This document shows, piece by piece, positions 14,035 through 64,000 of a stretch of DNA of 64,000 bases. Each line of letters opens with the position of its first letter. Within the stretch, counting starts at the first letter, position 1. Origin of the DNA: Escherichia coli (GTDB taxonomy: Bacteria > Pseudomonadota > Gammaproteobacteria > Enterobacterales > Enterobacteriaceae); NCBI RefSeq assembly GCF_044324785.1, contig NZ_CP172127.1, one strand, 5' to 3'. The position numbers and the translations under genes are program-made. The notes below the pieces were generated by a model. That model did no database searches. It was not told the origin of the DNA and was given only the letters and a program-made list of their open reading frames with translations.

Positions 14035-14056
14035 TGGTGCCGGAATCGGAATCGAA
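14035..14056. repeat. degenerate copy of tRNA-Phe 3' end (att scar, island boundary)
   Basis: TGGTGCCGGAATCGGAATCGAA matches the reverse complement of the tRNA-Phe 3' end with one gap and one or two mismatches. Confidence 0.45.
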
Positions 14057-14166: not shown

Positions 14167-15009
14167 TCAGGCTGAGAGCACAGAAGGAAAGTACCTGGCT
14201 ATTATATCGTTAATTCTGTCAATCAGTTCCAGCCTTTTGAAAGTGATGTGTGCAGATCCCTTCTTAAAGTATTTAATGATGAACATCTCGTCTTCATAGC
14301 GCTCTTTACCCTGAACGGACTGGATGTGACCATCCAGACGAATAGTGATGTTTTCCCGGTTGTCGGGGATCGGTTTGCCGCTGAACAGATGTAGCATTCT
14401 TTCCAGGTCGACGAGTCGGTCAGTCTGTTGCCCGGTGATAAGATGAAACCCCCACCGGTCCCACCTCACCAGGTTGTTGACGATAATTTTACTGCCAAAT
14501 TTGCAGGGGCAATTGGTTTTGTAATTCCAGCTCAGTCCCCTGAAGACGTTGATCACCCCTCGCTCAAACACCTCATCCTTATTCTGGTGTAGTTGTTCAA
14601 ATGTGATCAGAATGTTCGCTTCACTGATTTCCGGAAAATTATCGTACTCCAGTGACCGGTACCATGTATCACGGGCCTGTGCATCCATTAAGGAAAGCAT
14701 CCCTGAACGTTGCATCAGGTCACGCCAGATTTCGCGATCGAGATTGCGTGTGATGGCTTTCATTGCGGTTTCCGGTTTCTCCATCAGCCAGCAGCCGCAG
14801 CGAAAATCCTGTTTCATGGCCCAGCCCGGGGCGGCTTTACCGCCAATACTTTCTGTCATTGCTGATATTTCAGCCAGTTGCCGGATAAGTGTGTCGATTT
14901 GCAGCAGTGTACTCTTTCGTACAGCCAGAATGTGGCGGATATTGGTTGAGCAGATAACGTCCGTATGCCCGGTGACCACTTCCGGACGGGAGATTGTGAT
15001 GTCTGACAT
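14167..15009 (-). CDS. conserved island hypothetical protein (paralog at 45253-46122)
   Basis: 280-aa ORF with a near-identical paralog; sits beyond the CbtA toxin gene. Confidence 0.6.
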   Translation of the reverse strand: MSDITISRPEVVTGHTDVICSTNIRHILAVRKSTLLQIDTLIRQLAEISAMTESIGGKAAPGWAMKQDFRCGCWLMEKPETAMKAITRNLDREIWRDLMQRSGMLSLMDAQARDTWYRSLEYDNFPEISEANILITFEQLHQNKDEVFERGVINVFRGLSWNYKTNCPCKFGSKIIVNNLVRWDRWGFHLITGQQTDRLVDLERMLHLFSGKPIPDNRENITIRLDGHIQSVQGKERYEDEMFIIKYFKKGSAHITFKRLELIDRINDIIARYFPSVLSA

Positions 15010-15093: not shown

Positions 15094-15516
15094 TTACCGG
15101 TTCTGGTGCAGAAGCTGCAGGTGACGAAGAGTACGGACATCCTCCCGGGCCTGTTCGATACAGGGCAACAGTGCTGCCGAATCCGTTTTATCCTCATCGT
15201 TGTCAAAGATAATTCCCGATTCGCAGTCGATATTGTCCTGCAGCCACGCAATGAGGATATCCAGCGCTGTTTCAGTGGTTAATGGCATCACGCTCTGTAT
15301 CACTGTATTGTCTTCCGGCAACTGATGAGGGCTGGCAGAAGTCGCCGGTGTTTCGGTAGCGTCACGTTTATCCACCACGCGGAGTGAATAACCGTTTTCA
15401 GCGACCTTGTTAATCAGTTCAATGAGATTAACACCATCGACGTCAACGACAATTCGCCCCATGTTCAGCGCCTGCACGTTAACGCTGTCGGCTTCCAGCG
15501 TCAGGGCCAGTTTCAT
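15094..15516 (-). CDS. hypothetical protein in yeeW-like position downstream of cbtA
   Basis: 140-aa ORF overlapping cbtA stop by 4 bp; N- and C-terminal parts conserved in copy 2 but the middle is replaced. Confidence 0.45.
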   Translation of the reverse strand: MKLALTLEADSVNVQALNMGRIVVDVDGVNLIELINKVAENGYSLRVVDKRDATETPATSASPHQLPEDNTVIQSVMPLTTETALDILIAWLQDNIDCESGIIFDNDEDKTDSAALLPCIEQAREDVRTLRHLQLLHQNR

Positions 15517-15890
15517 TGTTTCGCCTCCGGATGCTTACCCAGAGTAATGTTATTTACTGTTCGGTAATTGTCGCGGGTCATCAGGCCGGTCGCCCTGCGA
15601 GCCCGGAGGATATCGATGCTGTTTATTAACTGAGAGCGGGTACAGGCGCTGAATCCCGGCTGGTCGGTACGCACCAGCGCGTATTTTTCCACGAGAAAGT
15701 TCACCGCATCACACAGTGAAATGCCTGCCTCAATATGCTGCTCAATCACACGTTCATCAGCGAACGGTGTGTCATTCAGTGTGAGGCCGTAATGCTGGTC
15801 CAGCAGTCGGGTGAGCAGTGTATGCCAGATGGTGACGGGAGACGGGCAGCACGATGCCTCCCGTACGTGTGTGTCAGGTAATGTTTTCAT
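15513..15890 (-). CDS. cbtA: CbtA/YkfI/YpjF-family type IV toxin
   Basis: MKTLPDTHV...LTLNDTPFADERVIEQHIEAGISLCDAVNFLVEKYALVRTDQPGF recognised as CbtA family; track ORF trimmed to MKTLP. Confidence 0.8.
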   Translation of the reverse strand: MKTLPDTHVREASCCPSPVTIWHTLLTRLLDQHYGLTLNDTPFADERVIEQHIEAGISLCDAVNFLVEKYALVRTDQPGFSACTRSQLINSIDILRARRATGLMTRDNYRTVNNITLGKHPEAKQ

Positions 15891-15936
15891 CTTAAGTTCT
15901 CTGTAACTGGTAGTGCTAAAGGTGAGATATTCGGGG

Positions 15937-16311
15937 TTATGAGGTGGTTGCGGGTGCCAGTGTCGGATAAACAGCCATATAAACGTAACCACAGGAGCCG
16001 AGGGTGTCGGCTTCACAGGCCAGCCCCTTCGCATACAGTGTCACGGTATGCTGATGGCGGGGATTCAGTTCACCGCTGGTGAGCATGAGCTCCAGTTGTT
16101 TCATCAGCAGCGGAAAGGCCTGGTCCAGGTGGTACGCATCTGCATCGCTGAACAGGCCTCTGATACCGGCGCGGTCGGCAAGGTAATGCAACCGGTTACC
16201 CTCCTGCACCAGACGTGCCCCGAAACAGGGCGTCACGGTGCAGGGCAGCCCCCACCAGGGGCGGTCGTGATTGTCGTCGGGAAGTGTTGTCCCGGGGAGT
16301 GTGTCTGACAC
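15937..16311 (-). CDS. cbeA: CbeA/YafW/YfjZ-family antitoxin
   Basis: 124 aa MSDTLPGTTLPDDNHDRPWWGLPCTVTPCFGARLVQEGNRLHYLADRAGI...; immediately upstream of toxin. Confidence 0.8.
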   Translation of the reverse strand: MSDTLPGTTLPDDNHDRPWWGLPCTVTPCFGARLVQEGNRLHYLADRAGIRGLFSDADAYHLDQAFPLLMKQLELMLTSGELNPRHQHTVTLYAKGLACEADTLGSCGYVYMAVYPTLAPATTS

Positions 16312-33762: not shown

Positions 33763-34152
33763 ATGACGATGTACGCAAAATCCTTTATTGCATTTGATGG
33801 CAACGGGCGTCTGACGGGTGCCCGTACCGCACAGACTGCACCTTACGATCGCTACACTTGCCACCTTTGCGGCAGTGCGCTCAGATACCACCCGCAATAC
33901 GACACTGAGCGTCCCTGGTTTGAACACACTGACGACGGGCTGACGGAGCACGGTCAGCAGTGCCCTTATGTCAGACCGGAACGCAGGGAGATACAACTGA
34001 TTAAGCGTCTGCAGCAATTCGTACCGGATGCCTTACCCGTGGTGCGTAAAGCCAGCCGGCACTGCAGACAATGTCATCACGATTATTATGGGGAGCGGTA
34101 CTGCACGCACAGCCATACCGGGCACTTCAGTGAGGAGGGGGTGGCAGAATGA
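33763..34152 (+). CDS. small zinc-ribbon protein (paralog 1 of a tandem pair)
   Basis: 129 aa; CHLCGSAL...WFEH followed by a C-terminal CxxC/His cluster; stop overlaps next start (ATGA). Confidence 0.5.
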   Translation: MTMYAKSFIAFDGNGRLTGARTAQTAPYDRYTCHLCGSALRYHPQYDTERPWFEHTDDGLTEHGQQCPYVRPERREIQLIKRLQQFVPDALPVVRKASRHCRQCHHDYYGERYCTHSHTGHFSEEGVAE

Positions 34153-34574
34153 ACGGTATAAAAACGGGGCTGGGGATCACGCCGGGTGAACACATTATCA
34201 GTGCTGATTCTGCGCTCAGCAGAAATATCCGGCAGTGTTTCTGCCTTTCCTGTCATGGCCGGTTGATTTTGCAGACAGATGCTCAGGGGGCGTGGTTTGA
34301 GCACGATTTACATGTCCTGAGCGAGCAACAGAAGGCAGCCTGCGTGGTGCTGAATCCGGAAAAGTCCCACCCTTACATTGAGGATATGGAGATGTTTTTA
34401 TCGCCATTACCGGTCGTGCTGGAGTGGCATTGTGTGATGTGTGAGCAGTTTTTTCATGGGAAGAAATTCTGTGAGGCCTGTGGTACGGGGATTTATTGCA
34501 GAGCGGTATGTACGAAGTCTGTTTACAGCTACCAGCCAGACTTGTTTCAGGACTGCGGAGGTGCGAGTACTTAA
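34149..34574 (+). CDS. small zinc-ribbon protein (paralog 2 of a tandem pair)
   Basis: 141 aa; CLSCHGRL...WFEH and CVMC...CEAC motifs parallel the upstream gene. Confidence 0.5.
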   Translation: MNGIKTGLGITPGEHIISADSALSRNIRQCFCLSCHGRLILQTDAQGAWFEHDLHVLSEQQKAACVVLNPEKSHPYIEDMEMFLSPLPVVLEWHCVMCEQFFHGKKFCEACGTGIYCRAVCTKSVYSYQPDLFQDCGGAST

Positions 34575-42868: not shown

Positions 42869-44131
42869 CTATTTTAATGGATTGTTAATCTTTGCATATT
42901 CAAACGGGCTGATACATTGTTCTCTGTTCGCACCCAGAAAATCTGCCCACCACTGTAGCATCAGTCGACGTTCTTCCAGATGTTCTGCTTTATGGATATA
43001 TGCAGCACGTACACCATTACGCTCCTGATGGCTCATCTGACGTTCCACAGCATCGCGGGACCACAAACCTGATTCAATCAATGCACTGCACGCCATCGCC
43101 CGGAATCCATGACCACAGACTTCCTGGGTTGTGTCATATCCCATCACCCTCAGGGCTTTATTTACAGTATTTTCACTGATCGGTTTACGCGGGTCATGTG
43201 CTCCCGTAAAGATCAGACCATTTTCACCAGCCCATGTCTGTAGTTCTGTCAGTATGGCTACAGCCTGTTTGCTGAGTGGCACAAGATGTGGTGTTCGCAT
43301 CTTGGAGCCCCGGTGTGAGTATTTTACGCCTGGCAGAGGTTCGCGTTCGGCTGGAATAGTCCACATGGCATTGTCAATATCAATTTCAGACCAGCGGGAA
43401 TATCTGAGTTCACTGGAACGAATAAAAACCAGTAAATTCAGCATAACTGCCAGTCGGGTGACAGGCTGACCTTTATAACCGTCAATACGCGACAGAAGTT
43501 CAGGCAGGCGTGAAAGATCCAGAGCAGGGCGATGCTGGCGTTTTACCGTGGTCAATGCACCAGCCATATCCAGAGCCGGGTTATATCTGATGATGCCAGA
43601 CTGTACGGCATAACGCATTACAGCAGATATTCTTTGCTGCAGACGACTGGCGATTTCATAAATTTGTTTTGCTTCTGCAGCACGAACAGGGATAAGCAGG
43701 TCCGGGGTATTGAGTGTTGTGATATCCCGGTTGCCGATAAAGGGGAAAACGTGTGTCTCGAGGCTTTTGATTACTTTATCGCTGTGTGATTGTGCCCATT
43801 GTTTATTACTGGCATGCCAGCGTCGTGCAATATGTTCAAAAGAGAGTTGTAAATCAGGGACTACTTTTTTAGCTCTTTTTTGTTCGCAAGGGTCAATCCC
43901 CTCTGAAATCAGTTTTCGGGCCTCATCCCGTTTTGTACGAGCTTCGGAGAGAGAAACTTCTGGATATACACCAAGTGCCAGAGTCTTCTCCTTACCCAGA
44001 ATACGATAACGGAGACGCCAGTAACGGGAACCATTAGGATGAACCAGCAGGAACATGCCAGCCCCGTCAGTGAGTTTATAAGCCTTGTCAGTGTGCTTTG
44101 CAGCCCGGATTTTTGCGTCAGTCAGTGCCAT
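42869..44131 (-). CDS. P4-type (IntA-like) tyrosine integrase
   Basis: 420 aa; MALTDAKIRAAKHTDKAYKLTDGAGMFLLVHPNGSRYWRLRYR N-terminus typical of P4-family integrases; next to tRNA-Phe 3'-end repeat. Confidence 0.85.
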   Translation of the reverse strand: MALTDAKIRAAKHTDKAYKLTDGAGMFLLVHPNGSRYWRLRYRILGKEKTLALGVYPEVSLSEARTKRDEARKLISEGIDPCEQKRAKKVVPDLQLSFEHIARRWHASNKQWAQSHSDKVIKSLETHVFPFIGNRDITTLNTPDLLIPVRAAEAKQIYEIASRLQQRISAVMRYAVQSGIIRYNPALDMAGALTTVKRQHRPALDLSRLPELLSRIDGYKGQPVTRLAVMLNLLVFIRSSELRYSRWSEIDIDNAMWTIPAEREPLPGVKYSHRGSKMRTPHLVPLSKQAVAILTELQTWAGENGLIFTGAHDPRKPISENTVNKALRVMGYDTTQEVCGHGFRAMACSALIESGLWSRDAVERQMSHQERNGVRAAYIHKAEHLEERRLMLQWWADFLGANREQCISPFEYAKINNPLK

Positions 44132-44287
44132 AGTTCAGCCTTCTGAATGCGTTAAAGAGGGTACAAATTCTGTCGAACTGGGGTATACCCGCAATTATAC
44201 CCACACAATGGGGTTGATGTGGGGGGAATCTGGTTGAGTTCGGTAGAATTGATTTGGAGGCAGAACGCTTAAATTGTGGCGTTCTGA

Positions 44288-44317
44288 AACGAAAAACGGA
44301 CCTCCGTGGAGGTCCGT
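44288..44317 (-). terminator. rho-independent terminator-like hairpin
   Basis: ACGGACCTCC-GT-GGAGGTCCGT perfect inverted repeat followed by T-run on the minus strand. Confidence 0.4.
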
Positions 44318-44328
44318 TGATATGAATT

Positions 44329-44347
44329 TGGTGCCCGGACTCGGAAT
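44329..44347. repeat. 19-bp direct repeat of tRNA-Phe 3' end (att site)
   Basis: TGGTGCCCGGACTCGGAAT is the reverse complement of the tRNA-Phe 3' terminus; sequence diverges from the tRNA beyond 19 nt. Confidence 0.6.
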
Positions 44348-44594
44348 GAAACTGGTTGTATAACAAGTTGTTTTATATTGATTGTTTTGTGTTTGTTATT
44401 TTTGAGGCCACCAATGAGGCCCCCATGTGCAATTCGAATTCTTTTGACGCTATAATCCCTCTTTCTTGTGGTTTGTTGTAATCATTTTGTCTGGTTCGAT
44501 ATGCTGAATCGCGGAATCGAAGTGACAACAAAATACAGAGATTTATAAAATACCTGGCTACCTGTGTTAGGGAGCGTTAACGCACAGATTTTGT

Positions 44595-44921
44595 TTATGG
44601 CTGCCAGAAATGATCTGATGGTTTGTCGTCTGGCTCTGCAAGTACCCTGTTGATATCCCGGGAACCATGAACGATACGTTCGATACGAACTTCAGTATCC
44701 AGTACCCTGAACAGCAGAAGGTAACGACCATACGAACAACCTCTGATCCCAGCCCCTAACTCGGGTCTTTCTCTGTAGAGTACTGGCGATTCGGCTATCA
44801 ACAGACATTGTTGGTAAAGCTCTTCGGTAAAACTGATTGCACGGACAGGATTATCCTGAGCGATCCAGTCACCTATAGCTTCAAGATCGTGTTCTGCTAA
44901 TGGTGAAACAGTCAGTTTCAT
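44595..44921 (-). CDS. parE: ParE/RelE-family type II toxin
   Basis: 108 aa; overlaps upstream antitoxin gene by 4 bp. Confidence 0.7.
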   Translation of the reverse strand: MKLTVSPLAEHDLEAIGDWIAQDNPVRAISFTEELYQQCLLIAESPVLYRERPELGAGIRGCSYGRYLLLFRVLDTEVRIERIVHGSRDINRVLAEPDDKPSDHFWQP

Positions 44922-45181
44922 ATTGGCTGTTCACCTTCTGCCATCTTTTTGTATTTGTGCGTCAGTCGCCCGAATACCTCTTCAGCACTTTTACTTTCAC
45001 CGCTGTTGATGCCTGCGGTCACGGCGCTCTGGAGTGATTCAAGCTTTATCTGCTGTTCCCGTTCTTCCAGAGCACGAAGTCCGGCACGAATGACTTCACT
45101 TGTATTGTTGTACCGACCACTTTCTATTTGTTCGCGGATAAACGTTTCAAAGTAAGGACTGAGGGATACACTGGTAGGCAT
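44918..45181 (-). CDS. parD: ParD-family (RHH) type II antitoxin
   Basis: 87 aa; ...FIREQIESGRYNNTSEVIRAGLRALEEREQQ ParD-like signature. Confidence 0.7.
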   Translation of the reverse strand: MPTSVSLSPYFETFIREQIESGRYNNTSEVIRAGLRALEEREQQIKLESLQSAVTAGINSGESKSAEEVFGRLTHKYKKMAEGEQPI

Positions 45182-45252
45182 GGTTATTTTCTCGCCGATT
45201 GATCACTATCAATTAATAATAGTTAATATTCGTGAATTGTAAAATACCTCTT

Positions 45253-46122
45253 TTATGCCTTGCTGCTTTTGTTCACTGTGCTTGCCAGGGCTTCCGGGTA
45301 GTGTCTGGCAATAATATCATTAAGCCTGTCAACCAGCTCTGGTTTCCTGAACGTGATGTGCGCGGAGCCCTTCTTAAAGTATCTGATGCTGAACATCTCA
45401 TCTTCATAGTCCTCTTTACCCTGAACAGACTGGATGTGATCATCCAGATGAATGGTGATGTTTTCCCGGTTGTCGGGGATCGGTTTGCCGCTGAACAGGT
45501 GTAGCATTCTTTCCAGATCGGCAAGTCGATCTGCCTGTGGGCCGTTGTTCAGATGAAACCCCCACCGGTCCCACCTCACCAGGTTGTTGACGATAATTTT
45601 ACTGCCAAATTTGCAGGGGCAATTGGTTTTGTAATTCCAGCTCAGTCCCCTGAAGACGTTGATCACCCCTCGCTCAAACACCTCATCCTTATTCTGGTGC
45701 AGTTGTTCAAATGTGCTCAGAATGTTCGCTTCGCAGATTTCCGGAAAATTATCGTACTCCAGTGACCGGTACCATGTATCACGGGCTTGTGCATCCATTA
45801 ATGACAGCATCCCTGAACGTTGCATCAGGTCACGCCAGAGTTCGCGATCGAGATTCCGGGTGATGGCTTTCATTGCGGTTTCCGGTTTCTCCATCAGCCA
45901 GCAACCGCAGCGAAAATCCTGTTTCATGGCCCAGTCCCGGGCGGTTTTACCTCCAATACTTTCTGTCATTGCTGATATTTCAGCCAGTTGCCGGATAAGT
46001 GTGTCGATTTGCAGCAGTGTACTCTTTCGTACAGCCAGAATGTGGCGGATACTGGTTGAGCAAATAACGTCCGTATGCCCGGTGACCACTTCCGGACGGG
46101 AGGCTGTGATATCTGACATCAT
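45253..46122 (-). CDS. conserved island hypothetical protein (paralog of 14167-15009)
   Basis: 289 aa, near-identical to copy 1 over most of its length. Confidence 0.6.
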   Translation of the reverse strand: MMSDITASRPEVVTGHTDVICSTSIRHILAVRKSTLLQIDTLIRQLAEISAMTESIGGKTARDWAMKQDFRCGCWLMEKPETAMKAITRNLDRELWRDLMQRSGMLSLMDAQARDTWYRSLEYDNFPEICEANILSTFEQLHQNKDEVFERGVINVFRGLSWNYKTNCPCKFGSKIIVNNLVRWDRWGFHLNNGPQADRLADLERMLHLFSGKPIPDNRENITIHLDDHIQSVQGKEDYEDEMFSIRYFKKGSAHITFRKPELVDRLNDIIARHYPEALASTVNKSSKA

Positions 46123-46412: not shown

Positions 46413-46901
46413 TTACCAGTTGAAAGTGGGTAAACCCGGCAGGCATTCAGCGCTGGCATCCAGATGAATGAGACTGACGCCATAACGTCGGGTAAGTGTG
46501 ACAACCAGACGGCGGAACGTTTTTGACAGGCCCAGGCGCTTAAGCCGCAAAACCGGGTATGACCACGCATCGGTACGTAACAGATATCCGCTACCTGTGA
46601 AATGAATCCATTCTGATTCGCCGGTGTCATTCGTCTGATGTGACAGCGAGTACAACCAGGCATTGTCCGTTTCCGTGATATGTGCGGTACTGCAGCGTAT
46701 GCCGGTAAGGGCCGCAGATGGTGGCGTGCGCTCTGCTGATGCCCGGTCAGATTCATCAACAACACGAAGGGAGTAACCGTTATCGCAGACCACGTTAATC
46801 AGTTCAGCGAGAGTAACACCATCGACGTCAACGACAATGCGCCCCATGTTCAGTGCCTGCACGTTAATGCTGTCGGCTTCCAGCGTCAGGGCCAGTTTCA
46901 T
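46413..46901 (-). CDS. hypothetical protein in yeeW-like position (variant of 15094-15516)
   Basis: 162 aa; N-terminal 50 aa match copy 1, then a divergent inserted segment; copy-1 C-terminus appears in a separate frame (46204-46446). Confidence 0.4.
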   Translation of the reverse strand: MKLALTLEADSINVQALNMGRIVVDVDGVTLAELINVVCDNGYSLRVVDESDRASAERTPPSAALTGIRCSTAHITETDNAWLYSLSHQTNDTGESEWIHFTGSGYLLRTDAWSYPVLRLKRLGLSKTFRRLVVTLTRRYGVSLIHLDASAECLPGLPTFNW

Positions 46902-47275
46902 TGTTTCGCCCCCGGATGTTTACCCAGGGTAATGTTATTTACCGTTCTGTAATTTTCGCGGGCCATCAGGCCGGTTGCCCGGCGTGCCCGGAGGATATCA
47001 ATACTGTTTATTAACTGAGAACGGGTACAGGCGCTGAATCCCGGCTGGTCGGTACGTACCAGCGCGTATTTTTCAACGAGAAAGTTCACCGCATCACACA
47101 GTGAAATGCCCGCTTCAATATGCTGCTCAATCACACGTTCATCAGCGAACGGTGTGTCATTCAGCGCGAGGCCGTAGTGCTGGTCCAGTAACCGGGTGAG
47201 CAGTGTCTGCCAGATGGTGACGGGAGACGGGCAGCACGATGCCTCCCGTACATGCGTGTCGGGTAATGTTTTCAT
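46898..47275 (-). CDS. cbtA: CbtA-family toxin, copy 2
   Basis: MKTLPDTHVREASCCPSPVTIWQTLL...; track ORF trimmed. Confidence 0.8.
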   Translation of the reverse strand: MKTLPDTHVREASCCPSPVTIWQTLLTRLLDQHYGLALNDTPFADERVIEQHIEAGISLCDAVNFLVEKYALVRTDQPGFSACTRSQLINSIDILRARRATGLMARENYRTVNNITLGKHPGAKQ

Positions 47276-47364
47276 AATGAAGATTTTCCTGATATGCAGA
47301 GATAAAAAATGGGACAGTGGCGTGGTGAAAGCACCAGGCCGGAGCAGAAGGTTATTCTGGAGAG

Positions 47365-47733
47365 TTACTTTTTCGTTTCGGGCGTCGGATAAACAGCCAT
47401 ATAAACGTAGCCACAACTGCCGAGGGTGTCGGCTTCGCAGGTCAGCCCTTTTGCATACAGTGTCACGGTATGCTGATGGCGGGGATTCAGTTCACCGCTG
47501 GTGAGCATGAGTTCCAGTTGTTTCATCAGCAGCGGAAAGGCCTGGTCCAGGTGGTACGAATCCGCGTCGCTGAACCGCCCTCTAATACAGGCGCGGTCGG
47601 CAAGGTAATGCAACCGGTTGCCTTCCTGTACCAGACGGGCACCAAAACAGGGCGTCACGGTGCAGGGCAGTCCCCACCAGGTGCGGTCGTTATTGTCGTC
47701 GGGAAGCGTTGTCCCGGGGAGTGTGTCTGACAC
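47365..47733 (-). CDS. cbeA: CbeA-family antitoxin, copy 2
   Basis: 122 aa paralog of 15937-16311. Confidence 0.8.
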   Translation of the reverse strand: MSDTLPGTTLPDDNNDRTWWGLPCTVTPCFGARLVQEGNRLHYLADRACIRGRFSDADSYHLDQAFPLLMKQLELMLTSGELNPRHQHTVTLYAKGLTCEADTLGSCGYVYMAVYPTPETKK

Positions 47734-53034: not shown

Positions 53035-53997
53035 ATGACGGCACAACAAAGTGATGCGCTGCGTGAGATTGCTAATAAGGCCAGAGTTACCACCATTCTT
53101 CAGTGTAAGGCCTGGAAAGATACCCAGCGAATACTGAAGCGCAGCGGACTCGTGTGCAGAGAACGGTCAGAGCCGTTTGATCCGGAGAAACATTTTGACT
53201 GTTATACGGTGCGTTATCTGTACCTGCTTAACATAATGGCACTTGAGCTAAAGTCAGATACACGGATTAAGGTTGAGGTGGGGCAATGGTATCGCATGAC
53301 GGGTAAACGTTTATCACTTAATGTCCCGCCTTTTATGCTGATCCCGCGTAATATCCGGAGAAAAGTGGACGGATTCAGACAATCCAGACAATCAGAAGAT
53401 GAAGCAACCAAAAATCCGCCTCAACCGTTCACGGGCAGTTTGTATAAGGTTTTGAGCAGGGACAGCGATTCGGCTGAGCTGGACGCCTGGTTTGCTGAAC
53501 CGCCGCTGACACGGCAGGAAGTGTGGGAGGGGAGGCGTGTTACAGATTTTGATCCATGGGCGCTGTCTTCGTTTATTTGCCGTTCAGAATCCCCGACGTT
53601 TGAACTTTTTTACCAGGAATATAAGCGACTGGGATTAAAATCTCTTTTTGTATCAGGGGTAATGTTTGAACAGTTTTTAACAGGGCTAAGTTTCAGAAAA
53701 TATGGGGACTGGGTTGAATCTCAGTTACTGGAATCACTGGGAAATGTGATGTTTTTCATGCTGCTTTATGACATGGAAAATCTGGATAAGTTTATAAAAG
53801 AACTGATGGACATTAATGTTCAAAGTGAAGATTCGAAGGAAAAAGGGAAATCACGAAAAGAGAGAATGCTGGAGTATATCAACTCATATATCCGCAATGT
53901 TTATGGAAGATTCCTTTGTACGTCAAAAGAAAGGTACGAACAGCATAAACGCAAAAACAGCAGCAAAAAGAAAAACGGTTCTGGTGGAACTCATTAA
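53035..53997 (+). CDS. hypothetical protein (orphan)
   Basis: 320 aa, ATG with GGGAGG SD; Lys-rich C-terminus; no recognisable motif. Confidence 0.5.
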   Translation: MTAQQSDALREIANKARVTTILQCKAWKDTQRILKRSGLVCRERSEPFDPEKHFDCYTVRYLYLLNIMALELKSDTRIKVEVGQWYRMTGKRLSLNVPPFMLIPRNIRRKVDGFRQSRQSEDEATKNPPQPFTGSLYKVLSRDSDSAELDAWFAEPPLTRQEVWEGRRVTDFDPWALSSFICRSESPTFELFYQEYKRLGLKSLFVSGVMFEQFLTGLSFRKYGDWVESQLLESLGNVMFFMLLYDMENLDKFIKELMDINVQSEDSKEKGKSRKERMLEYINSYIRNVYGRFLCTSKERYEQHKRKNSSKKKNGSGGTH

Positions 53998-54848
53998 CGG
54001 GAATAATCCCCTGCTGTTTTCTGCATAAACAGACGATCAGCTGATAAGATGAGTTTATCCAGCATTTCAGCCTGCGTCAGATTATTCTTTTTTGCCATTT
54101 TCCGGAGTGCATTCCTGGCTTCCGGAGAAATCAGGGCACTTATCTGTACCCGGGAATCGGTTTTCTCATACCGGAACATTTTCTGGTATGAGCACTTCAT
54201 GCGCCTGAGAAAATCATTCTGCTGATAAACTAATTCTTTTAACTTTTGAGGTTCAGTACCGACAGAATAGATTTTCATGAAGACACGGCGCACATAAGCT
54301 ATTATGAACAGACGTGACTCCCCTGAAGCTTTAAATTCTGAAATATCAGGACAGTGACGTTCTTCGTCAGTGCAATGTTTTTGCAGATACGCCCATGCCC
54401 ATTTGATATGTATCCGCCGGGAACCAAGCCATGTCATGGGGTTCACTTTTTCAGCATATGACCATAAAAAATGAACGACATACAAGAAGTCAGATACATT
54501 TTCTGTCCCGGTTAGCCTTATAAGCTCCTGTAGCCATTTTCTCGTCACACGAATCCTTGCCTGATGATTAGCTGGAGCTGCTTCTGTGGCAAACAGTCTG
54601 GCATACAGACAGGAAGTTCCGTAATCTGCATATTGCTCACCTGAGAGTCGGACAATACTGTCAGGAACATGATATATAAACATCCATACCCAGAATGCGG
54701 CTACAGGGTCTTTTTGCACCCACTCCGGAACAACGTCTCTGCCTGCATTATCAGCATTAACAGAAGGTGATTTATCGTTATGTCGGTAATATTCATATTC
54801 CATCCGACTAAAAACATGATCAGATTCATCTGGTGAATGCACAGACAT
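53994..54848 (-). CDS. hypothetical protein with C-terminal RHH-like segment
   Basis: Track ORF 53994-54863; preferred start MSVHSPD preceded by AGGGAG; 3' end overlaps the convergent gene by 4 bp. Confidence 0.5.
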   Translation of the reverse strand: MSVHSPDESDHVFSRMEYEYYRHNDKSPSVNADNAGRDVVPEWVQKDPVAAFWVWMFIYHVPDSIVRLSGEQYADYGTSCLYARLFATEAAPANHQARIRVTRKWLQELIRLTGTENVSDFLYVVHFLWSYAEKVNPMTWLGSRRIHIKWAWAYLQKHCTDEERHCPDISEFKASGESRLFIIAYVRRVFMKIYSVGTEPQKLKELVYQQNDFLRRMKCSYQKMFRYEKTDSRVQISALISPEARNALRKMAKKNNLTQAEMLDKLILSADRLFMQKTAGDYSR

Positions 54849-55810
54849 GAACTCCCTGGGCATAAATGCACAACCAACTCTATAGAACTCTTTACCCCCC
54901 CTCTTATCACCTCTGTCAGTAAATTTCGCCTGAATCCCCTTTTATCCATACATCAGAAAAAATGCAATAACGTTCATGGACTCTTTTCTCTGATTTACAT
55001 AAAAACACAGAAAATTACAATGTGATTAATATCGCGTTTTTTTAAAAAATTATATTGACATCATGTTATTTCCTGTAGTTTGCAATAAAAAATTTTCTTA
55101 AAATATTTATATGAATATTTTTGATGCCTCAACATGCTGTCGTTATATAGAGTGTCTTCTCATCATTTATGGTTATTTCTCTCAATGCGCATACGCTCTG
55201 TCAGGGCATGTCTGTAGCTGCCATGATGGGGAATGAGAACTCAGCAAAAGGATTTTGGATGCAGTGAAGTTCTCCCGGAGACGGTTCTTCTGAGGTGGGG
55301 GTGGCATCATATCCTCTTACATAAGATGATGGCGTGCGCGGGAAAGCTTTCTTCTGTACTCAGGTTGTTGTTGGTTATCCCCGGTCGTCATTGTTTTCCT
55401 GACATTAAGATCCTGATTCCAGGATCTATAGCACAGTCGTTTCCTTGTGTGCTGTTATGCTTCTGCTCAGTTCAGAACAATTGCTTCATCCGGCATGGAG
55501 AATTCCGGTGAGTGAGGCAGTAAGAAATGACTGACATGAATGTTATATGTGAAGGGGCCGGAGAGACGTCATAATCAGTATGGCTGTCATTCTGGCTGGA
55601 AAATGCGATCACTTTCCGGGGTAAAAGACAACATGGAAGCTGACGAACGGGATGCTCCGGATGGTCTTTTCAGGGAGGCCTGGGTAAATAATTTCAGAGT
55701 AAATCTGTATGTTTTTTAAACAGTAAAGATCCATGCTGGCCGTGAAAAACTGAAATCAACACTCAGTCTGCATGGATGTCTGAAGATGTTGAGAATGTCG
55801 GGAATGGTAC

Positions 55811-63696: not shown

Positions 63697-64000
63697 CAAC
63701 TCCCGCTCATCTTTCTGCTGGCACCCTCTGGCCAGCCAACTGTTTGTCATCATTTCCTGACTGATTCGTCATTCCCTTCGTCCCGCCAGTCACTGGTGTT
63801 TGTATCGTACCGTGCCGGTGTCGATGTGCGCTTTCCGTGTGTCTGGTCTGCACCGGCTTAACAAAATTCAACGGGGATAAAATAGTGCAAATAACCGAAG
63901 CCTTACTTTCAGCGCCGGGGGAAATCCGGCGTTTTGTTCAGCAGGCGGTGGACCACTGGCCAAATCTGTTGGCATTTCACTTCACGCTCCATTCGGCAGA

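Follow-up and report, generated by a model that had tools for sequence, protein, structure and literature searches.

A ParDE toxin-antitoxin pair at the attR end of a CP4-like pheV island of Escherichia coli and its candidate role in island retention

A parD-parE gene pair at 44595-45181 of the analyzed stretch of Escherichia coli DNA (64,000 nucleotides in length, hereafter the window) is very probably a genuine ParDE toxin-antitoxin module. The pair lies between the attR repeat and the backbone of one of two tandem islands (island B), inside the integrative element. We interpret it, with somewhat better than even confidence, as an intact and autoregulated type II cassette that fills the cargo slot at the end of a CP4-like pheV island, where addiction to the cassette would favor retention of the island.

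The occurrence of parDE at this island end is already known, as the genes are routinely annotated and their position between tRNA-Phe islands has been published; in ST38 genomes, a parDE module was described as separating two genomic islands next to tRNA-Phe (2025 paper, PMC12632120). No experimental study of this very pair came up in our literature search. Modules of this kind are common, the pair has been annotated automatically in hundreds of genomes, and it matters little alone. Nevertheless, it is useful as a boundary marker of island B, and it is a candidate reason for the retention of large pheV/pheU pathogenicity islands; in the window, these are neighbors of the kps capsule locus.

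Identification of the parD-parE gene pair

Exactly two open reading frames (ORFs), both on the minus strand, were identified at 44595-45181. A preliminary description of this DNA had proposed a parD-parE pair at the same coordinates, and the proposal was confirmed by the exact ORF boundaries and by the agreement of Pfam, NCBIfam, PDB, and an AlphaFold2 (AF2) model. The parD gene (44918-45181, minus strand) encodes an antitoxin of 87 aa with an N-terminal ribbon-helix-helix domain, and the protein matched PF03693 in Pfam (E = 3.9e-17, 62.9 bits) and the 'ParD family antitoxin' TIGR02606 in NCBIfam (96.9 bits vs. a cutoff of 46.2). The parE gene (44595-44921, minus strand) encodes a toxin of 108 aa, which matched PF05016 (ParE_toxin) in Pfam (E = 7.9e-18, 65 bits, cutoff 23). 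The gene order is parD-parE on one strand, the stop codon of parD and the start codon of parE sharing 4 bp (ATGA), and in the alignment the parD start codon lines up with the starts of the homologues from Salmonella and Pantoea. In the PDB, residues 3-65 of ParD matched Vibrio cholerae ParD2 (7b22, 5e-11), Caulobacter ParD1 (3kxe, 1e-10), and Mycobacterium tuberculosis ParD1 (8c24, 2e-9).

The family PF05016 mixes RNases, including E. coli RelE, with gyrase inhibitors (PMC11980606). Because this profile does not separate the RelE RNases from the ParE gyrase inhibitors, additional comparisons of sequence, structure, and residues were performed. The shared family and a weak match to RelE_StbE (TIGR02385; 24.3 bits, under the cutoff of 27.9) would be consistent with a RelE-like, ribosome-dependent mRNA endonuclease in place of a gyrase poison. 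However, all eight matches of ParE at E <= 1 in the PDB sequence search were ParE toxins, with RelE absent among them, and the best of these was the Mesorhizobium ParE 6X0A (E = 2.8e-13). The AF2 model of ParE, for which 40 homologues were used as input, had a mean pLDDT of 85 with disorder in the 13 C-terminal residues (96-108). A Foldseek search of the PDB with this model returned ParE-type toxins, from ParD-ParE and related complexes, as the top 22 neighbors, many of them with a probability of 1.00; the set included 6X0A, 5CEG, PrpT 7YCS, 8C24, 3KXE, 7R5A, 5CW7, 6XRW, and PfiT 9W3A. The target-normalized TM-scores were 0.72-0.90 for the ParE-type structures and lower, about 0.5-0.7, for RelE, YoeB, and YafQ.

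A residue comparison was made with hhalign after the E. coli RelE reference sequence had been checked against PDB 4V7K and aligned to the family profile. Four of the five RelE catalytic residues were missing from ParE (K52, K54, R61, and Y87 corresponded to G56, G58, L68, and L94), and only R81 was kept, as R88; the low probability of this alignment (16%) makes the comparison supporting evidence only. Taken with the ParD-type partner antitoxin, the sequence matches and the predicted fold place the toxin in the ParE gyrase-poison branch and not in the RelE RNase branch, and we consider a RelE-like activity very improbable. By analogy with its family, DNA gyrase is the most likely target of ParE.

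Distribution and conservation of parDE

The parDE genes were found in 472 of 5,426 complete E. coli genomes, always on the chromosome and never on a plasmid, with at least 99% identity in 469 of them. In every locus inspected, they formed the last module at the end of a pheV or pheU island, downstream of and adjoining a DUF4942 gene. The proteins (accessions WP_000779483.1 and WP_001143297.1), annotated as a RelE/ParE toxin and a ParD antitoxin, were each found in identical form on at least 1,000 contigs and are the commonest alleles in E. coli. Homologues at 60-85% protein identity occurred throughout the Enterobacterales, including Pantoea megaplasmids and a Salmonella IncF plasmid, in unrelated contexts. 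Only one homologue, from a Ralstonia phage, was found in the phage collection, and parDE is therefore not a typical phage gene.

When ParE and ParD were compared with the Salmonella and Pantoea homologues, pN was 0.09-0.19 and pS was 0.60-0.83, the latter being saturated; pN/pS is given because saturation of the synonymous sites left dS not estimable for most pairs. These values point to purifying selection on both genes, and both ORFs are of full length and correspond to the commonest alleles, all of which argues against a decayed and non-toxic remnant that is passively kept. Such decay does occur elsewhere, as orphan or mutated parE copies have been reported in some ST131 genomes (PMC12632120) and E. 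coli STE15 has parD without parE, although numerous frameshifts are annotated in this part of the STE15 assembly. For the pair in the window, we regard decay as the least probable of the explanations weighed here.

In STE15 (locus L005, 5029-5292), parD was kept and parE was lost, and a truncated cbtA was joined directly downstream. This arrangement is an antitoxin orphaned when two islands recombined, although, given the frameshift annotations, it may partly be an artefact.

Candidate promoter and operator of parDE

A sigma-70-like promoter candidate was located at 45216-45243 on the minus strand (TTTACA, 16-nt spacer, TATTAT), with 10 of 12 matches to the consensus. The promoter scan alone was at the level of chance, with two sites found against 2.6 expected. 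Its location, 35 nt ahead of the ATG of parD, supports this candidate, as does the conservation of its -10 region in the homologues.

The upstream regions of four loci (the E. coli locus, the Salmonella IncF plasmid homologue, and the two Pantoea megaplasmid homologues) were aligned. The block ATAyTAACnnTTAnTAAyTGATAGT was kept upstream of parD while its surroundings diverged, and it corresponds to a 23-bp imperfect palindrome, ATTAACTATTA-T-TAATTGATAGT, at 45205-45227, which overlaps the -10 hexamer. As judged by eye, the two arms of the palindrome agree with each other at 10 of their 11 positions in the homologues from Salmonella and Pantoea. A palindrome over the -10 region is the arrangement expected for autorepression by a ribbon-helix-helix antitoxin, and we propose it as the candidate ParD operator.

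Another inverted repeat, ATTGAT-N4-ATCAAT (45198-45213), was also considered as an operator and was found in E. coli only. A deletion has removed its second arm from the homologous loci of Salmonella and Pantoea, and for this reason the conserved 23-bp palindrome was preferred. A scan of 43900-45500 against Rfam, evaluated by E-value, gave no match.

Island end and layout of the window

The 19-bp direct repeat TGGTGCCCGGACTCGGAAT at 44329-44347, which we take to be the tRNA-Phe 3' end in reverse complement, forms the attR of island B and the attL core of the adjacent island A. The window contains a single exact copy, and chance alone would be expected to give none. The stop codon of parE is 248 bp from this repeat, which agrees with the distance of about 250 bp given in the preliminary description. 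Its assignment of the pair to the edge of island B was likewise upheld, since parDE lies inside the boundary and the same repeat borders core genes in genomes with a single island. The parDE-bearing island end borders yghD at pheV in EC0885, and at pheU in APEC17 it borders a remnant integrase followed by cadC. Because the same end is found next to core genes in these genomes, the repeat at 44329-44347 is the true distal (attR) end of island B. In PK8566 and GPEC1446, the parDE island end adjoins another integrase in tandem, as in the window.

From the repeat to the end of the window, island B consists of a terminal tail, parE, parD, and genes for DUF4942, DUF957, DUF5983, cbtA, and cbeA, and continues onward. 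The tail is a conserved segment of 172 bp (44348-44519) that was found beside parDE or abiE in 1,136 of 5,426 genomes; it probably represents the attR arm, with a putative role in recombination. The DUF4942 gene (45253-46122, minus strand; PF13708, E = 1e-67) is the last backbone gene of the island and the upstream neighbor of parD.

On the other side of the repeat, a terminator-like hairpin (44295-44318, minus strand) with a 10-bp stem including six GC pairs is followed by a T run. It follows the repeat directly, has the same strand as parDE and the tRNA, and probably serves as a replacement tRNA terminator supplied by island A; going downstream from parE, no other terminator-like site is met before it. 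The P4-type tyrosine integrase gene of island A (42869-44131, minus strand) encodes Arm-DNA-bind_3, Phage_int_M, and Phage_integrase domains, and its counterpart in TUM9803 lies beside a tRNA annotation. That annotation is a 78-nt 'tRNA-Ser' assigned by PGAP (locus L006, 33244-33321) where a tRNA-Phe is expected, and ARAGORN detected no tRNA at the site. An integrative conjugative element of the SPI-7 type comes next in TUM9803, and the annotated gene may represent a tandem junction at which the tRNA is hybrid or damaged.

The window is the pheV region of E. coli, with genes for a group 2 capsule (kps) at 1-13 kb and the DUF4942 gene of island A at 14167-15009. A degenerate tRNA-Phe repeat, TGGTGCCGGAATCGGAATCGAA, was observed at 14035-14056, just to the right of the terminator-like AAAAACCCGCCTTGTGGGCGGGTT, which looks like the native pheV terminator. 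This repeat marks the distal end of island A; it carries one deletion and one substitution and was missed by a search allowing two mismatches because of the indel. ARAGORN found no tRNA in the 64,000-nt window, and the integrase of island B and its tRNA-Phe must therefore be located past position 64000. Another carrier of parDE, EC0885, was followed inward from its parDE end for 49 kb, a stretch in which the only annotated recombinase sequence is a tyrosine-recombinase fragment and which stops short of the tRNA end. In 23CRST013, the related island showed only a remnant integrase. For the region 40000-64000, the best matches among complete genomes covered at most 80%.

Alternative cassettes in the terminal slot

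Comparison with related islands indicated that parDE belongs to a cassette of ~776 bp (44520-45295) that is swapped with other content. Homology to abiE-bearing islands breaks off sharply after 44519 (...GGAATCG) and is regained, again sharply, at ~45296, within the final ~14 codons of the DUF4942 gene. In the four inspected genomes with the tail and without parDE (ATCC 25922, ZH193, an O111:H8 strain, and 23CRST013), genes for AbiEi (DUF6088) and AbiEii were found between the tail and the DUF4942 gene; the slots used for this comparison are at 4173-5600 in L007, 3673-5091 in L008, and 4087-5422 in L011. The abiE cassette was present in 667 genomes, which together with the 472 carrying parDE gives 1,139, close to the number with the tail; the agreement is approximate, as it compares totals and as the tail match in 23 genomes was at only 60-80% identity. 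At all 40 sampled places with a tail of the 90-100% type, one of the two cassettes was present. Empty slots were found in a more distant relative (L010, at ynjB), in which the tail is 73% identical, and in island A of the window, in which about 110 bp between the DUF4942 gene and the repeat contain no toxin-antitoxin cassette.

In ATCC 25922 and ZH193 (L007, 4188-5122; L009, 3688-4621), the AbiEii toxin gene was annotated as frameshifted with the antitoxin gene intact. This may reflect decay of the toxin in some lineages.

The parDE cassette was 98.8-99.7% identical over four loci, in two of which the tail was 92.4% and the DUF4942 gene 94% identical, and across genomes the 172-bp tail was mostly 90-95% identical. 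Since the identity of the cassette exceeds that of its flanks, the cassette moved between diverged islands after the islands had diverged. Such movement is also what would be expected of a selfish hitch-hiker that maintains itself by its own addiction and spreads by homologous recombination in conserved flanks, with no net benefit to island or host. In support of this explanation, the cassette was 98.8-100% identical against 92-94% for the flanks, the near-identity of parDE in 469 of the 472 carriers coexists with the more variable tail, related islands have empty slots, and homologues occur on the Salmonella IncF plasmid and Pantoea megaplasmids. Its mechanism, however, overlaps with that of island retention, because addiction to the cassette would also penalize loss of the island end, and the occupancy of 40 of 40 sampled slots suggests selection for a cassette at this place. 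We consider a purely selfish cassette unlikely.

The same observations raise the possibility, which we put forward tentatively and as the less probable side of the question, that the last ~0.8-1.4 kb before the attR of CP4-like tRNA-Phe islands is a dedicated and near-always occupied slot for toxin modules. Here, parDE and abiEi-abiEii would be mutually exclusive alleles beside the shared 172-bp tail, exchanged between diverged islands through recombination in the flanks. If true, this would imply selection for a poison module at the attR edge itself, which would either protect the end from being deleted or excised or make it a hotspot for defence. An alternation of parDE and abiE at one defined slot was not seen described in the literature searched; we regard it as a modest lead and not as a discovery. 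It nevertheless provides a straightforward natural experiment for asking whether island-end toxin modules act in maintenance or in defence against phages.

Proposed function in island retention

Stabilization of the island is the most economical reading of parDE, and a plausible one by analogy, because the module is inside the island, looks functional, and has precedents in the modules of CP4So and SXT. According to the proposed mechanism, parD and then parE would be transcribed from the promoter candidate about 35 nt upstream of parD, with translation of the two genes probably coupled by the ATGA overlap. The ribbon-helix-helix domain of ParD probably binds the 23-bp palindrome over the -10 region, which would repress the operon, and the C-terminal half of ParD probably neutralizes ParE; free ParE would most likely poison DNA gyrase. 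Upon loss of the island end by excision or deletion, the presumably labile ParD would no longer be made and leftover ParE would inhibit the cell. This inhibition of cells without the island end would bias the population toward those that keep the island.

We give about even odds to retention of the island end as the main consequence of parDE. Several points stand against it. The integrase and tRNA of island B are located outside the window, and in EC0885 only the recombinase fragment was annotated within 49 kb of the parDE end, so that protection against excision may be irrelevant in some hosts. Island A persists in the same window without a cassette at its end, and the slot is filled in other strains by AbiE, which acts in abortive infection. 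The cassette could equally serve in defence or be purely selfish.

If the cassette served mainly against phages, ParD would run low or ParE would be released on infection, and the host would stop growing before the phage cycle was complete, with the island end acting as a slot for defence cargo. In 667 genomes the slot is taken by AbiEi/AbiEii, a cassette with an effect on phage susceptibility in CFT073 (PMC12488582), and related islands carry other defence cargo, e.g., Dnd/Dpt and a TIR-domain protein. Nevertheless, no PADLOC model was matched by ParE, ParD, or the DUF4942 protein, the literature search returned no report of phage defence by a canonical ParDE, and sharing a slot with AbiE is guilt by association only. 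We consider defence as the main role unlikely, albeit slightly likelier than a purely selfish cassette.

Comparison with known systems

The pair resembles the solved chromosomal ParDE systems of Mesorhizobium opportunistum (ParDE3; 5CEG, 6X0A), Caulobacter crescentus (ParDE1; 3KXE), V. cholerae (ParDE2; 7R5A, 7B22), and M. tuberculosis (ParDE1; 8C24) in having the antitoxin gene first, a ribbon-helix-helix ParD, and the same ParE fold; the ParE model and chain A of 6X0A shared 39% identity with a TM-score of 0.88. In contrast to these systems, to which identity is only 20-40% and the C-terminal toxin-binding part of ParD was unaligned, the pair described here has a 13-residue disordered tail in ParE and is located where a tRNA-Phe island of E. 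coli ends.

Toxin-antitoxin modules promote the maintenance of several integrative elements, one of which is SGI1 with its SgiAT module; SgiAT belongs to another toxin-antitoxin family than parDE, and excision of SGI1 has been demonstrated. MosAT likewise lies inside an integrative element, SXT, and promotes its maintenance (PMC8978831); it also differs from parDE in toxin-antitoxin family and in the demonstrated excision of its element. The closest functional precedent for island retention by parDE is ParESO/CopASO (2018, cited in PMC8978831), which has a ParE-family toxin on an integrative element of the P4/CP4 type and has been shown by experiment to stabilize the element after excision. 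The maintenance of the P4-like prophage CP4So by ParESO/CopASO and of SXT by MosAT are both experimental precedents (cited in PMC8978831). Unlike in parDE, the ParESO antitoxin is named CopA, and its host and element are different; the two systems are compared here by description.

The founder of the family is ParDE of RK2/RP4 (Jiang et al. 2002, cited in PMC11205521 and PMC11980606), in which ParE inhibits the gyrase of E. coli, ParD autoregulates, and the plasmid is stabilized by post-segregational killing. That system is plasmid-borne, whereas the copy described here was chromosomal in all 472 E. coli carriers. AbiEi/AbiEii (c3681-c3682) in PAI-pheV of CFT073 is a two-gene toxin-antitoxin module, as is parDE, and the abiE cassette of the slot would be the equivalent of c3681-c3682 according to the description in PMC12488582. 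The two modules are unrelated in family, AbiE consisting of a type IV nucleotidyltransferase toxin and a DUF6088/AbiEi antitoxin, and AbiE of CFT073, unlike parDE, has an experimental effect on phage susceptibility (PMC12488582).

Other toxin-antitoxin modules and cargo in the window

The two CbtA/CbeA copies mentioned in the preliminary description were both found, one in each island and all on the minus strand. In island B (about 46898-47733), cbtA is located at about 46898-47275 (PF06755, 3e-62) and cbeA at 47365-47733 (PF06154, 1.8e-54); in island A (about 15513-16311), the corresponding genes are at about 15513-15890 (PF06755, 1.3e-62) and 15937-16311 (PF06154, 5.9e-54). With parDE, the window holds at least three toxin-antitoxin modules, as had been stated.

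The cargo of island B also includes two convergent ORFs, at 53035-53997 on the plus strand (320 aa) and at 53994-54863 on the minus strand (289 aa), for which Pfam and PADLOC gave no match. Similar 'hypothetical proteins' were found at the equivalent place in PK8566 (L001, 28823-30642). In island A, two adjacent paralogous ORFs of 129 and 141 aa (33763-34574, plus strand) each encode a DUF7828 domain and a zinc-ribbon domain, and their RefSeq label is only 'putative zinc ribbon protein'.
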